NCBI GenBank assembly: GCA_948466255.1
Contig: CAOJZV010000006.1
Location: 2,521 to 66,520 of the forward strand
Reading direction: 5' to 3'
Length of the DNA: 64,000 bases
Source: an uncultured Bacillota bacterium
GTDB lineage: Bacteria; Bacillota_I; Bacilli_A; RF39; UBA660
Within the stretch, counting starts at the first letter, position 1. Every line of letters starts with the position of its first letter. The notes beneath the pieces are model-generated. The model was not told the origin of the DNA, did no database searches, and worked only from the letters and a program-made list of their open reading frames with translations. Shown here piece after piece: positions 24,367 through 33,297 of this stretch. The position numbers were made by a program, and so were the translations under genes.

Positions 24367-24648
24367 ATGAAAAAATATACTATAAACGAAAAAGAATATG
24401 AATTAATAAAAGATTATCGTGATGGTTTTGATTTATCTGAGGTTACTGATAAATTTACAGATTATTTTGATAATTATGATTATATATTAGGTGACTGGGC
24501 TTATGGAAAACTTAGATTAAAAGGTTTTTGTGATAAGGATAATAGTCTTTTTAAGGATATAAATGATTATTCAACTATTGAGAATTATATTAAGGATAAT
24601 TGTGCTTATAATTGTAAATATTTTATTTTAAAGAAACTTAGTAAATAA
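24367..24648 (+). CDS. yutD: YutD-like protein (DUF1027)
   Basis: YELIKDYRDGFD...DYILGDWAYGKLRLKGF matches the YutD family signature. ATG 24367 is preferred over the track start. Confidence 0.65.
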   Translation: MKKYTINEKEYELIKDYRDGFDLSEVTDKFTDYFDNYDYILGDWAYGKLRLKGFCDKDNSLFKDINDYSTIENYIKDNCAYNCKYFILKKLSK

Positions 24649-24690
24649 GATATTATTGTAATAATTTAATTAATGTGTTATATTATATTT

Positions 24691-24793
24691 AGTGAGGAAA
24701 TTCCTCATAAAAAAGGGAAACATTGTAACATATCAATGTCTGCCTAAATTGTTTTTAGTAAGACACTTTGCTTATGCAAGGTGTCATTTTTTT
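24691..24793 (+). ncRNA. Putative antisense (antitoxin) sRNA, copy 1
   Basis: Promoter TTGTAA (24656-24661), 17 nt, TATATT (24679-24684). Terminator hairpin GACACTTTGC-TTAT-GCAAGGTGTC (24762-24785) followed by ATTTTTTT. It is complementary to the 3' UTR of the minus-strand peptide mRNA. The ends are predicted only. Confidence 0.35.
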
Positions 24794-24794
24794 A

Positions 24795-24878
24795 TTAATT
24801 AAGGCACTTCCAAAGAAGGCCAATCAACAAAATGATAATTACAAGCAATACTAGGATTATAAAATCTTTTTTTGTCAT
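24795..24878 (-). CDS. 27-aa hydrophobic peptide (candidate type I toxin), copy 1
   Basis: Translation: MTKKDFIILVLLVIIILLIGLLWKCLN. An AAGGAGGG SD sits 8 nt upstream and is half-buried in a CCTTTCAG/CTGAAAGG hairpin. Promoter TTGACC-17-TATATT on the minus strand (complement of 24958-24986). Confidence 0.45.
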   Translation of the reverse strand: MTKKDFIILVLLVIIILLIGLLWKCLN

Positions 24879-25195
24879 AATATCAAGCCCTCCTTTCAGG
24901 AACCCCCTGAAACTGAAAGGCAGACACCGATAGCGGTTAAAATGTTTCCGAGTAATTAATATAAACTAGTTATAAACAAAGGTCAAACAACAATTTTGGC
25001 ATTTTTGAAGCATTTTTTCATACAAAAAAACCAAATCTGTTATAGACAAATTTGGCAAATTCATAAGGTTTATTTCTTCAAAAAAGGAAAGTTGGTAGTT
25101 TTATTTATATTATGGAAATTTTATGAAAAGGTGGTTAGGTGGTGGAAAAAAGATAGTAAAAATGTTATAATGGATAAAGATAGGAGGCCTTTAAA

Positions 25196-27865: not shown

Positions 27866-28764
27866 TGAAGACATTTAGAATTATTGGAAGAAATTTTAGG
27901 GATGCCTTTAAAGGTGTATTTAGGAACTTTTCTTTATCACTTGCTTCAATATCATGTATTACAATAACCCTTATTGTTGTAGCTGTTTCAATTATACTTT
28001 CTTATAATGTTGATAATTTTACTAATTTAGTTGAAAAAGATGTTACGATTGTTTCATTTTTAGATAATGATTTAAGTGATGAAAAAATAGATGAAATTAA
28101 AGATCAAATTAGTGTAATTAATAATGTAGATAAATATGAATTTATTTCTAAAACAGATATTACTAAAGATATGATGGAATCTTCTGATGTTTTTGAAAGT
28201 ATTATGAAAAACTGGTCTGATGAAGAAAATCCAATTCAAAATACTTTCCAAGTTAAAGTTAAAAACATTGAAGATATTGACAATGTAGCAAAGGAAATTA
28301 AACAAATTGATGGTGTTACACTTGTTAAATATGGTGAAGGTATGGTTGAACAATTAATTTCTGTATTCGATATTGTTCATAAAGTTTGTGTAATTTCAGT
28401 AATTGCTTTAGTTTTAGTTACTGCCTTCTTAATTTCTAATACAATTAAAATTACAATTAATTCAAGGCAAAGAGAAATAAGTATTATGAGACTTATTGGG
28501 GCATCTAACTTAAATATTAGAATTCCATTTATTATTGAAGGTTTAATATTAGGTGCTTTAGGAGCCATTATTCCTATTATTGGAACTATTTATGGCTATA
28601 ATGCTCTTTATCATAATTTTAATGGACAATTATTCAGTCCATTCATTAAACTTATTCAACCTACACCTTTTGTATATACTATTTCATTAATTTTACTAGG
28701 AATTGGTATTTTAGTAGGTATGTTTGGCTCTTGGAGAGCTGTTAGAAAACACTTAAAGATTTAA
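27865..28764 (+). CDS. ftsX: Cell division permease-like protein FtsX
   Basis: 4-TM FtsX topology with a large extracellular loop. The start overlaps the ftsE stop. Confidence 0.85.
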   Translation: MKTFRIIGRNFRDAFKGVFRNFSLSLASISCITITLIVVAVSIILSYNVDNFTNLVEKDVTIVSFLDNDLSDEKIDEIKDQISVINNVDKYEFISKTDITKDMMESSDVFESIMKNWSDEENPIQNTFQVKVKNIEDIDNVAKEIKQIDGVTLVKYGEGMVEQLISVFDIVHKVCVISVIALVLVTAFLISNTIKITINSRQREISIMRLIGASNLNIRIPFIIEGLILGALGAIIPIIGTIYGYNALYHNFNGQLFSPFIKLIQPTPFVYTISLILLGIGILVGMFGSWRAVRKHLKI

Positions 28765-28783
28765 TTTATTTAAATCTTTTTTT
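28755..28783 (+). terminator. Intrinsic terminator after ftsX
   Basis: AAAGATTTAA / TTAAATCTTT 10-bp stem followed by a T-run. It overlaps the stop codon. Confidence 0.65.
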
Positions 28784-28844
28784 GTTATATAAAAGTAGCA
28801 AAAAAATGCGCACATCTTTTTACGAATTTTCTTCTTAAAAACAC

Positions 28845-28875
28845 TTGCCAAAACTAGGGGGGGGGGGGGTATAAT
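28845..28875 (+). promoter_or_regulatory. Promoter with a G13 homopolymer in its spacer (candidate phase-variable switch)
   Basis: TTGCCA (28845-28850), a 19-nt spacer AAACTA+G13 (G tract at 28857-28869), then TATAAT (28870-28875). A GGTGA SD and ATG 28903 follow. Confidence 0.6.
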
Positions 28876-28902
28876 ATATTTAAGATAAACCAAGGTGATA
28901 AA

Positions 28903-29766
28903 ATGAGAAGAAGAAAAAGAAGAAAACAAAGAAAAATAATAATAATATCAAGTTTAATATTATTATTTATAATAACCGTAGGATATGCAGCATTTCAAAC
29001 AAATATAAATATAACAGCTAAAGGGAATATAAAAGTATTATTTCAAAAAGTTAAATTTAAGACACAACTTTTAGAAAATAATACTTTTGAAAATGGAATT
29101 AGTAATTGGGATAAATACGGATGTAGCTCAGGAGGTTATGAAGTAAGTTCTACAGTTAAATATAATGGATATAATTCGATGCGAGTATTTGAAAATAGTG
29201 GCTCACAAGTTAGTTGTTGGAATGGGATAGCACAAAAATTAAATAGATCGTATGATACAACTAAAACATATGAGACATCGGCCTATGTTTATCGTGATTC
29301 AACTAGTACCTATGGTGATTTGAATAATAAAATAAGAATTTATCATAATATGCTTAAAGATGGTGCTTCTGTTTCAGGATGGCTTTATATGAATAATAGT
29401 AAGAGTAGTGCTATTGAAATTACTAAAAATAGGTTAATTGATAAAACTTGGGTATATATTGAGGATTTCAACAAGGGTATAATTTCTGGCGTAAAAGGGG
29501 ATGCAATTTGGGGATATAGATTTGATTATAGTGCAACGGCTGTAAGAGATTCAGCTAGTTCTGTATGGATTGCACTGCCTAAATTTTTTGAAGTTGAGGA
29601 AAAGGAAATAAGAAAATTTTCTAAAATAGGGCAATTACCAAGTGCAAATAAAGCAGGCTACACTTTTGCCGGTTGGTATACTGAAGAAAGTGGTGGAGAA
29701 AAAATTGATGAAAATTTTAAAGTGACTGAGGATATAATTTTATATGCTAGATTTACTAAAAATTAG
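28903..29766 (+). CDS. Secreted/surface protein: basic N-terminus plus signal-anchor, CBM-like central domain, C-terminal Listeria-Bacteroides (Flg_new) repeat
   Basis: MRRRKRRKQRK followed by a hydrophobic helix. The central NNTFENGISNWDKYG segment resembles CBM4/9-type sugar-binding modules. The C-terminus AGYTFAGWYTEESGGEKIDENFKVTEDIILYARF is the TIGR02543-type repeat. Confidence 0.65.
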   Translation: MRRRKRRKQRKIIIISSLILLFIITVGYAAFQTNINITAKGNIKVLFQKVKFKTQLLENNTFENGISNWDKYGCSSGGYEVSSTVKYNGYNSMRVFENSGSQVSCWNGIAQKLNRSYDTTKTYETSAYVYRDSTSTYGDLNNKIRIYHNMLKDGASVSGWLYMNNSKSSAIEITKNRLIDKTWVYIEDFNKGIISGVKGDAIWGYRFDYSATAVRDSASSVWIALPKFFEVEEKEIRKFSKIGQLPSANKAGYTFAGWYTEESGGEKIDENFKVTEDIILYARFTKN

Positions 29767-32247: not shown

Positions 32248-32487
32248 TATAAAAAATTTATATATTTACCAACTTTCCCTTTTTGTAGGTTAAAGTTTTA
32301 CAAATTTACCAAATTTGTCTATAACAGATTTGGTTTTTTGGTATGAAAAAGTGTTTCAAAAATGCTAAATTTGTCATTTGACCTTTATTTATAACTAGTT
32401 TATATTATTTTCTCGGAAACATTTGTAACCGCTGTCGGTGTCTACCTTTCATTTTTTCAGGGGGTTTCCTGAAAGGAGGGGTTTGGT

Positions 32488-32571
32488 ATGCTTACAAAAA
32501 AAGATTTTATAATCCTAGTACTGTTAGTTATTATCATTTTACTGATTATCCTTCTTTTAAAGAATGGGTAG
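32488..32571 (+). CDS. 27-aa hydrophobic peptide (candidate type I toxin), copy 2
   Basis: Translation: MLTKKDFIILVLLVIIILLIILLLKNG. The SD AAGGAGG (32473-32479) is partly paired in a CCTTTCA/TGAAAGG hairpin (32445-32451 with 32470-32476). Promoter TTGACC (32378-32383), 17 nt, TATATT (32401-32406). Confidence 0.45.
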   Translation: MLTKKDFIILVLLVIIILLIILLLKNG

Positions 32572-32574
32572 TTA

Positions 32575-32679
32575 ATAAAGAAAGACACCCCGCTTTAAGC
32601 AGAGTGTCTTTCTGGTCAAAAAACTAGGTAGACATTGATATGTTACAATGTTTCCTTTTTTATGAGGAATTCCCCCATT
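32575..32679 (-). ncRNA. Putative antisense (antitoxin) sRNA, copy 2
   Basis: Minus-strand promoter TTGTAA (complement of 32709-32714), 17 nt, TATATT (complement of 32686-32691). The AAAGACAC...GTGTCTTT hairpin (32581-32611) acts as a bidirectional terminator. The ends are predicted only. Confidence 0.35.
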
Positions 32680-32718
32680 AATTAAAATATATCATATTTG
32701 TTAAAATATTACAACATT

Positions 32719-33297
32719 TTATAGTTTAAAATCTTTTGTGTCGTCATCACTCATATTTTTACCATCGAAATATAATTTTGGTTTAAATTTAAATATTAAC
32801 GCAATGATATTAGATGGAAATCTTTTAACTAACTTATTATAGTCAGTAATGATATCGTTATAATATTTTCTAAATGCAACTATTTCAGCTTCTGATTCAC
32901 TTAATGAAATATCGATTTTAGTAAACACTTCACTTTTTTTAAGTTCTGGATGTTCTTCTTTGTGTTTATTAAATTCTTTGATACCTTCATATAATCTTCT
33001 ATCTAAATCAAAATTTGATAACTTTCTAGATCTTAATTTAACAATAATTGTTAAAATATCGCCTTCAATTTTGGTATTAGCTTTAATGATATCGATTGAT
33101 TTATTAAGTAAATCAAATCTTGTTCTTAATGTTGAATCAATATTAGCTTCAGCTTCATTTATTCTAATAATATAGTTTTGAAAATTATTATATGTACCTG
33201 CAATTAATAATCCCAAAATAAAGATAATAAAAAAACTTGCTAATGTAATGATTAATGTTGTCATACTACCACCTAAAATCATTATAGCAAATTTCAT
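32719..33297 (-). CDS. lemA: LemA family protein
   Basis: N-terminal TM helix, then YNNFQNYIIRINEAEANIDSTLRTRFDLLNKSIDIIK, the LemA signature. Confidence 0.75.
   Translation of the reverse strand: MKFAIMILGGSMTTLIITLASFFIIFILGLLIAGTYNNFQNYIIRINEAEANIDSTLRTRFDLLNKSIDIIKANTKIEGDILTIIVKLRSRKLSNFDLDRRLYEGIKEFNKHKEEHPELKKSEVFTKIDISLSESEAEIVAFRKYYNDIITDYNKLVKRFPSNIIALIFKFKPKLYFDGKNMSDDDTKDFKL

Follow-up and report, generated by a model that had tools for sequence, protein, structure and literature searches.

The locus between ftsX and yabG

The stretch of DNA that we analysed (64 kb, hereafter the window) has a G+C content of 27.9% and a G fraction of 0.174, and carries a gene for a 287-aa protein with an unusual upstream region (Table 1). 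The gene is preceded by prfB, a YitT-family gene, ftsE, and ftsX, and is followed by yabG, veg, spoVG, yabP, an unnamed 90-aa ORF, and divIC; the organism is an uncultured, low-GC spore-former of the gut. The intergenic region between ftsX and the gene is 138 nt long. At the end of ftsX there is a terminator-like hairpin (minimum free energy -9.8 kcal/mol; z = -2.9 against shuffled sequences), which implies that the downstream gene needs a promoter of its own; a consensus terminator scan missed this hairpin because its stem is without G-C pairs. Two inverted copies of a non-coding dispersed repeat of ∼470 nt (24642-25111 and 32253-32728 in the window; another copy is found at L026:3696-4015, with 81-84% identity among copies) flank the 7.1-kb segment from prfB to divIC that holds the gene, and the repeat had no match in Rfam. 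Neither mutS nor mutL was found among the window ORFs that we examined.

The initial annotation described the gene product as a signal-anchored protein with a sugar-binding-like module and a Listeria-Bacteroides repeat, and the domain searches bear this out. Two Pfam families match above their gathering thresholds: CBM_4_9 (PF02018) at residues 55-149 (35.9 bits; cut-off 25.9) and Flg_new (PF09479, the Listeria-Bacteroides repeat) at residues 234-282 (47.4 bits; cut-off 27). In the AlphaFold model (pLDDT 84, pTM 0.76), residues 2-37 form one N-terminal helix, followed by a CBM-type beta-sandwich and a small C-terminal domain; the best Foldseek matches of this model are CBM11, CBM4, CBM16, and CBM22 modules (E-values of 1e-7 to 1e-5). 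The gene is thus predicted to encode an exported or surface molecule, and we infer that the product is exposed on the surface.

Upstream of the gene, the sequence runs in the order …CACTTGCCAAAACTA-G13-TATAATATATTTAAGATAAACCAAGGTGATAAA-ATG, with 27 nt between TATAAT and the ATG. The promoter spacer is 19 nt long, and a tract of 11 guanines would bring it to 17 nt. An uninterrupted run of 13 G between TTGCCA and TATAAT, making a 19-nt spacer, is exactly what had been claimed for this site from a first inspection, and the other coordinates and descriptions given there proved correct as well. The tract had also been called non-random: it is the sole G/C run longer than 5 in the window (the next-longest G or C run is 5), and since only ∼9e-6 runs of at least 13 are expected from the window composition, it is not a product of chance. 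In a promoter scan, the plus strand from the ftsX stop (28764) to the ATG (28903) yielded no further promoter-like site; the scan accepts spacers of 16-18 nt only, and for this reason the G13 site itself is absent from its list. There was no Rfam match at or near the tract, and a repeat search returned no further notable simple repeats in the window.

Two other readings of the site were considered and rejected. The tract is not an assembly artefact, as unique sequence is found on both sides of it in at least eight independent assemblies, and artefactual poly-G/C is confined to contig ends. A promoter for a sporulation sigma factor was considered as many genes of the family described below adjoin sporulation genes; it was rejected because the hexamers are those of the sigma-A consensus.

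Table 1. Positions of the features at the window locus (plain numbers) and of poly-G and poly-T tracts at other loci (with contig or locus).
Feature	Position	Strand	Details
Terminator-like hairpin	28755-28783	+	10-bp A/T-rich stem, 5-nt loop, then T run; directly after ftsX stop
Upstream cassette part cgaATTTTcttCTTAAAAacAC	28823-28844	+	A/T-rich, UP-element-like; conserved
-35 hexamer TTGCCA	28845-28850	+	read from sequence
Fixed 6-nt spacer part AAACTA	28851-28856	+	AAA(C/T)(C/T)A in every paralogous cassette
G13 (coding strand)	28857-28869	+	uninterrupted; variable spacer part, proposed slipped-strand switch
-10 hexamer TATAAT	28870-28875	+	invariant across this organism's cassettes
Ribosome-binding site AAGGTGA	28892-28898	+	4 nt before ATG; GGTGA kept in paralogues
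Controlled gene	28903-29766	+	287 aa; predicted exported or membrane-anchored protein
Leader coding sequence MRRRKRRKQRKIIIISSLILLFIITVGYAAFQTNINITAKGNI	28903-29031	+	43 aa: basic stretch, hydrophobic helix, conserved GYAAFQTN(I/L)NITAKGNI
Poly-G cassette	L015:8867		G13
Poly-G cassette	L017:9951		G16
Poly-G cassette	L026:8338		G14; ATG 100 nt downstream; gene at L026:8458 is a weak leader match only
Poly-G cassette	cotE flank		G14
Poly-G cassette	P0014 locus		G14, G14, G15 in three samples
Poly-G cassette	P0015 locus		contigs break within tract
Poly-G cassette	P0019 locus		G7; same in three assemblies
Poly-T tract	L015:9954-9973		T20
Poly-T tract	L021:8861-8877		T17
Poly-T tract	L021:9956-9973		T18
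Poly-T tract	L022:527-544		T18
Poly-T tract	P0024 locus, L054-L057		T8; same in four assemblies

A recurring cassette and a leader-sharing gene family

A protein search identified ∼45 proteins that match the window protein over the first ∼43 residues only (80-93% identity). The shared leader sequence is MRRRKRRKQRKIIIISSLTLLFIMTVGYAAFQTNINITAKGNI, and 18 of its columns are invariant in an alignment of 14 sequences. It has no lipobox cysteine (the window protein reads …LLFIITVGYAAFQTN…, and most paralogues read …LLFIMTVGYAAFQTN…), and no signal-peptide model in NCBIfam matched it at E-values up to 1; with its …VGYAAFQTN(I/L)NITAKGNI end it presumably resembles the SipW-dependent signal peptides of the TasA/camelysin type (…GGTWAAFND…). 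The bodies that follow the leader are diverse: CBM_4_9 with Flg_new, DUF6273, DUF285, a glycine-rich ALK_LTK domain, Laminin_G_3, BspA-type LRR, or no Pfam match. Among them, the genes with a poly-G cassette encode CBM_4_9 with Flg_new, DUF285, the glycine-rich ALK_LTK domain, or no Pfam match; the DUF6273, Laminin_G_3, and BspA-type LRR bodies belong to genes that carry a poly-T cassette (see below) or lie outside the promoter comparison.

The promoter region of the window gene recurs with the family. At six or more further loci of the same organism we found the cassette …ATTTT…CTTAAAAnnAC-TTG(C/T)CA-AAA(C/T)(C/T)A-G(n)-TATAAT, with n from 7 to 16 and with either TTGCCA or TTGTCA as the -35 hexamer of the paralogues; five of these six precede genes with a near-identical 43-aa export leader and different bodies. 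One genome thus holds at least seven cassette loci, and six of the seven, the window gene included, stand ahead of leader-sharing genes. The 22-nt pattern 5′ of the -35 hexamer is present in all 8 distinct upstream flanks of this organism, and the distance from TATAAT to the ATG is 26-28 nt at every cassette locus but one (L026:8338). In 152 kb of this organism, all G/C runs of at least 7 lie within the cassette, always with G on the coding strand, and all tracts but one are uninterrupted, a signature of selection for mutability. The family therefore consists of paralogues with a common promoter, 5′UTR, and leader, each with its own promoter repeat and with divergent mature parts. The initial annotation had read the G13 tract as a candidate switch at a single locus; that reading is supported for the locus itself, and what it missed is that the gene belongs to a multi-locus family.

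Ten family genes were examined for their upstream regions: six have the poly-G cassette, and four have a second type of cassette, …AAAAAAATTACCTTG-T(17-20)-ATGATACGCTGTATATGGTGGAAAAGA-ATG, which is found notably ahead of the second gene of tandem pairs (the tracts are listed in Table 1). Taking TATGAT as the -10 and TTACCT as the -35 hexamer of this second cassette, the T run would form a spacer of 18-21 nt; alternatively, a weak hairpin (AAGGTA…TACCTT) before the T run could make the run a terminator. Directly 3′ of one tandem pair of family genes lies a gene for a 285-aa tyrosine recombinase (L015:10942-11799; Phage_integrase family, of XerC/D size), which could be a housekeeping Xer protein or could be linked to the variable locus.

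Spacer length in relatives and among assemblies

We compared the promoter region in relatives of the window organism, all of whose named FtsE and RF2 relatives are NCBI entries of the type "MAG: Bacilli bacterium"; no cultured relative is among them down to 63% RF2 identity. In addition, a scan of JGI metagenomes with the leader alignment confirmed at least four loci, two of which (L039 and L041) were informative. G tracts are found in two other lineages: a 52%-identical orthologue (P0007, on contig L047) has TTGACA-TA-G19-TATAAT, and on contig L039 TTGACA-ATA-G24-TATACT immediately follows the gene for an 89%-identical FtsX and precedes a family gene with a different body; the distance from the -10 hexamer to the ATG is 16-29 nt in these two lineages. 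At the level of sequence, then, the G tract in the spacer is conserved across lineages and the fixed part of the spacer differs. Other relatives are tract-less: the promoter of a 58%-identical orthologue (P0002) is a perfect TTGACA-17-TATAAT in which the spacer is ordinary, and contig L041 (from a sage-grouse caecum metagenome, with an 82%-identical FtsX) has TTGATA-17-TATAAT after ftsX. These tract-less promoters confirm both hexamers as genuine parts of the promoter and show a native spacing of 17 nt.

The slot after ftsX is occupied differently in some genomes. A relative with FtsE P0066 (∼75% nucleotide identity) has a gene for an 834-aa ABC/FtsX protein between ftsX and yabG, with no tract, and so offers no orthologous tract for comparison. 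A strain with 99%-identical ftsX has neither cassette nor family gene after it (L013:1100-1263); its sequence diverges after …ACGAATTTT, where another ORF starts, a strain-level presence/absence polymorphism. When the pattern CTTGYCAAAAYYAGGGGGGGGG was searched in the contigs of GTDB representative genomes, there was one match, an unrelated one in a Saccharibacteria MAG, and either the window species is missing from the GTDB representatives or the tracts are broken there. The chance match itself (L020:4422-4460, in CAYRKQ010000031.1) reads CTTGCCAAAATCA-G10-TAAACT and lies 3′ of a gene for an 863-aa surface-type protein, ∼60 nt upstream of an ORF; this may represent a poly-G promoter spacer (of 16 nt) that arose in another phylum with no relation to the one described here.

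We consider it likely that G(n) is a slippage-variable spacer of a sigma-A-type promoter that sets the expression of the exported CBM-like protein; the reading as a phase-variation switch, first proposed from the window alone, gains support from the promoter anatomy, the recurrence of the cassette, the length differences between assemblies described next, and the predicted exported CBM-like product. The promoter would consist of TTGCCA, a spacer of six fixed nucleotides plus G(n), and TATAAT, and would drive the gene for the exported CBM-like protein; slipped-strand mispairing at replication would add or remove guanines, shift the -35 and -10 hexamers relative to each other in distance and in rotational phase, and so produce a heritable, reversible setting of transcription. 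High expression would be expected near G10-12 (spacers of 16-18 nt), and low or no expression at the assembled lengths of G13-G19. With independent switching at each locus, the set of exported or surface proteins would vary combinatorially. The G at -14 might provide a partial extended -10, in which case the -35 hexamer and the spacing would be less critical.

Metagenome contigs of the window locus from other samples, found by exact-protein look-ups of the gene product and of FtsX, differ in tract length. With identical flanks, the tract is G13 in the window and in L014, G14 in five contigs (L001/L006, L007, L008, L011, and L002), G15 in L012, and G19 in L009, all of them, like the lengths at other loci, being the consensus of short-read metagenome assemblies (in which homopolymer lengths are unreliable), with many contigs at 3-9x coverage. 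The P0014 locus also differs in length among samples; the short tract at the P0019 locus is invariant, as expected if mutability depends on length (Table 1). Since short-read artefacts are found beside the tracts, differences of +/-1 could be errors, and the length differences between assemblies are suggestive, not proof, of switching; slippage would account for them. In L007, for instance, the sequence beyond the tract is garbled from T to G; poly-C runs (22-52 nt, not all of them pure) stand at the contig ends of L019, L026-L028, and L050-L051, and the contig head of L018 is affected as well. Several contigs end at the tract; the repeated cassette is by itself enough to explain such breaks, and we rejected them as a sign of heterogeneity.

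The spacers observed are 19-25 nt in this organism, apart from the G7 locus with its 13 nt, and the two other lineages have 21 and 27 nt; the predicted optimal G11, or any spacer of 16-18 nt, was in none of the assemblies compared. Under the switch reading, every observed tract state would be low or OFF, and this absence of an ON length (G10-12) is the main weakness of the case. It is possible that most cells keep most loci OFF, that short reads over-call G, or that the optimum is not 17 nt. The same observation favors a second reading, which we judge unlikely, that the tract exists but does not vary: what differs between assemblies would be sequencing or assembly error, and the over-long, G-rich spacer would make the promoter permanently weak or silent, or dependent on an activator. 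Consistent with stability, most length differences are only +/-1, the artefacts around the tracts are clear, and several of the contigs have 3-9x coverage; against it, the G19 and G13-14 tracts at the same locus differ by 5-6 nt, three lineages of a clade with 28-31% G+C have kept pure tracts of 13-24 G, at no fewer than seven loci, and the tract-less relatives have ordinary A/T-rich spacers of 17 nt. The instability of G tracts rises with their length, as is known in Campylobacter, Neisseria, and other bacteria, and a non-mutable G13-24 would contradict this.

We regard as very unlikely a third reading, in which TATAAT works mostly alone, the tract acts through DNA structure or protein binding (a rigid poly(dG)·poly(dC), with the G at -14), and a regulator sets expression. 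A G at -14 belongs to the extended -10 motif, at least 22 nt are conserved 5′ of the -35 hexamer and could hold a regulator site, and a 17-nt state is absent among the assemblies compared. On the other hand, the -35 hexamer is near-consensus and conserved in all cassettes, and in tract-less relatives the consensus hexamers stand exactly 17 nt apart, which argues that both hexamers and their spacing matter; moreover, the T of the TG motif is absent at -15.

The joins seen among contigs raise the question of recombination. Three different flanks adjoin the body of P0014: a VanY flank (L048), that of a 388-aa gene (L049 and L052, from two samples), and a cotE-like one (L053). In L002 the window gene stands on the cotE flank, and in L012 the ftsX flank is joined to the 5′UTR of P0015. 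Moreover, relatives (L039 and L041) have other gene bodies in the place after ftsX, and the strain with 99%-identical ftsX (L013) lacks the cassette there. These observations are what one would see if the unit of tract, promoter, and leader were mainly a recombinational junction for swapping gene bodies between expression sites, possibly through G-quadruplex or slipped structures, with changes in spacer length as a by-product. We think this quite unlikely as the main role: all such joins are in short-read assemblies that cross the repeat via poor poly-G, for which mis-joins are the simpler reading, and both arrangements were never found in one sample. A role in recombination would in any case be compatible with spacer-length switching. 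A combined, two-layer form of antigenic variation, in which length switching is joined by cassette-mediated gene replacement and the poly-T class switches the second genes of tandem pairs, seems improbable to us; we know of no such two-layer system (length switching with gene replacement) in walled Firmicutes.

Comparison with known promoter switches

Contingency loci made of simple repeats are textbook examples in Neisseria, Haemophilus, Campylobacter/Helicobacter, and Mycoplasma; to our knowledge, reports of them from walled spore-forming Firmicutes or from uncultured gut commensals are scarce. At the window locus, the promoter of the gene itself has an uninterrupted homopolymer in its spacer, as in porA, opc, and vlp. 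The closest single locus is porA of Neisseria meningitidis, whose expression is high with 11 G in the poly-G tract of the -35/-10 spacer, 2-fold lower with 10 G, and 13-fold lower with 9 G (PMC3639595). Similar to the window locus, porA has an uninterrupted G homopolymer in the promoter spacer of a surface protein gene (opc has poly-C); however, porA is a single locus with 9-11 G in a Gram-negative pathogen of ∼52% G+C, whereas the system described here belongs to uncultured spore-forming Bacilli with 28% G+C and has tracts of 13-24 G (and one G7), with the cassette repeated ahead of a gene family at seven or more loci.

As a gene family, the nearest counterparts are found in mycoplasmas: the vlp family of M. 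hyorhinis has a poly-A tract in the promoter, and the promoter spacer of Vmm in M. mycoides contains TA repeats; as with porA, changes in repeat length were shown to alter transcription in both (PMC10502178). These systems resemble the window family in being variable exported multigene families with a promoter repeat per gene, a conserved 5′ region and leader, and divergent mature parts, and switching in the vlp family is independent for each gene (PMC10502178). Vlps are lipoproteins with a lipobox, repetitive C-terminal regions, and poly-A tracts; unlike them, the proteins of the window family have no lipobox cysteine and have unrelated globular bodies, their genes carry poly-G (and possibly a poly-T class), and the host is walled and spore-forming. 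Since lipobox and C-terminal repeats are both lacking, the window family is an analogue of Vlp and not a member.

The number of tracts recalls the phasomes of Campylobacter jejuni and Helicobacter, in which an A/T-rich genome has many poly-G/C tracts, mostly in genes for surface structures (PMC8355987). Multiple tracts per genome are shared with the window organism, but intragenic placement is not: Campylobacter tracts lie mostly within reading frames, where they act as translational on/off switches, and all tracts seen here are in the promoter spacer of one cassette. Phasomes of the Campylobacter type are further characterised by a genome that lacks MutS/MutL mismatch repair. The class of mechanism is already known (porA, opc, and vlp); new are the lineage of the host, the gene family, and the organisation in which one cassette is placed ahead of many leader-sharing genes. 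We found no description in the literature of promoter poly-G switching in this bacterial group. As the cassettes break or mis-join short-read assemblies, the MAGs of this clade will tend to lose or scramble these genes systematically.

If the proposed mechanism is true, this clade varies exported, carbohydrate-binding, adhesin-like proteins stochastically at many loci, which would bear on evasion of immunity (IgA), on interactions with phages or host glycans, and on the persistence of strains in the gut.
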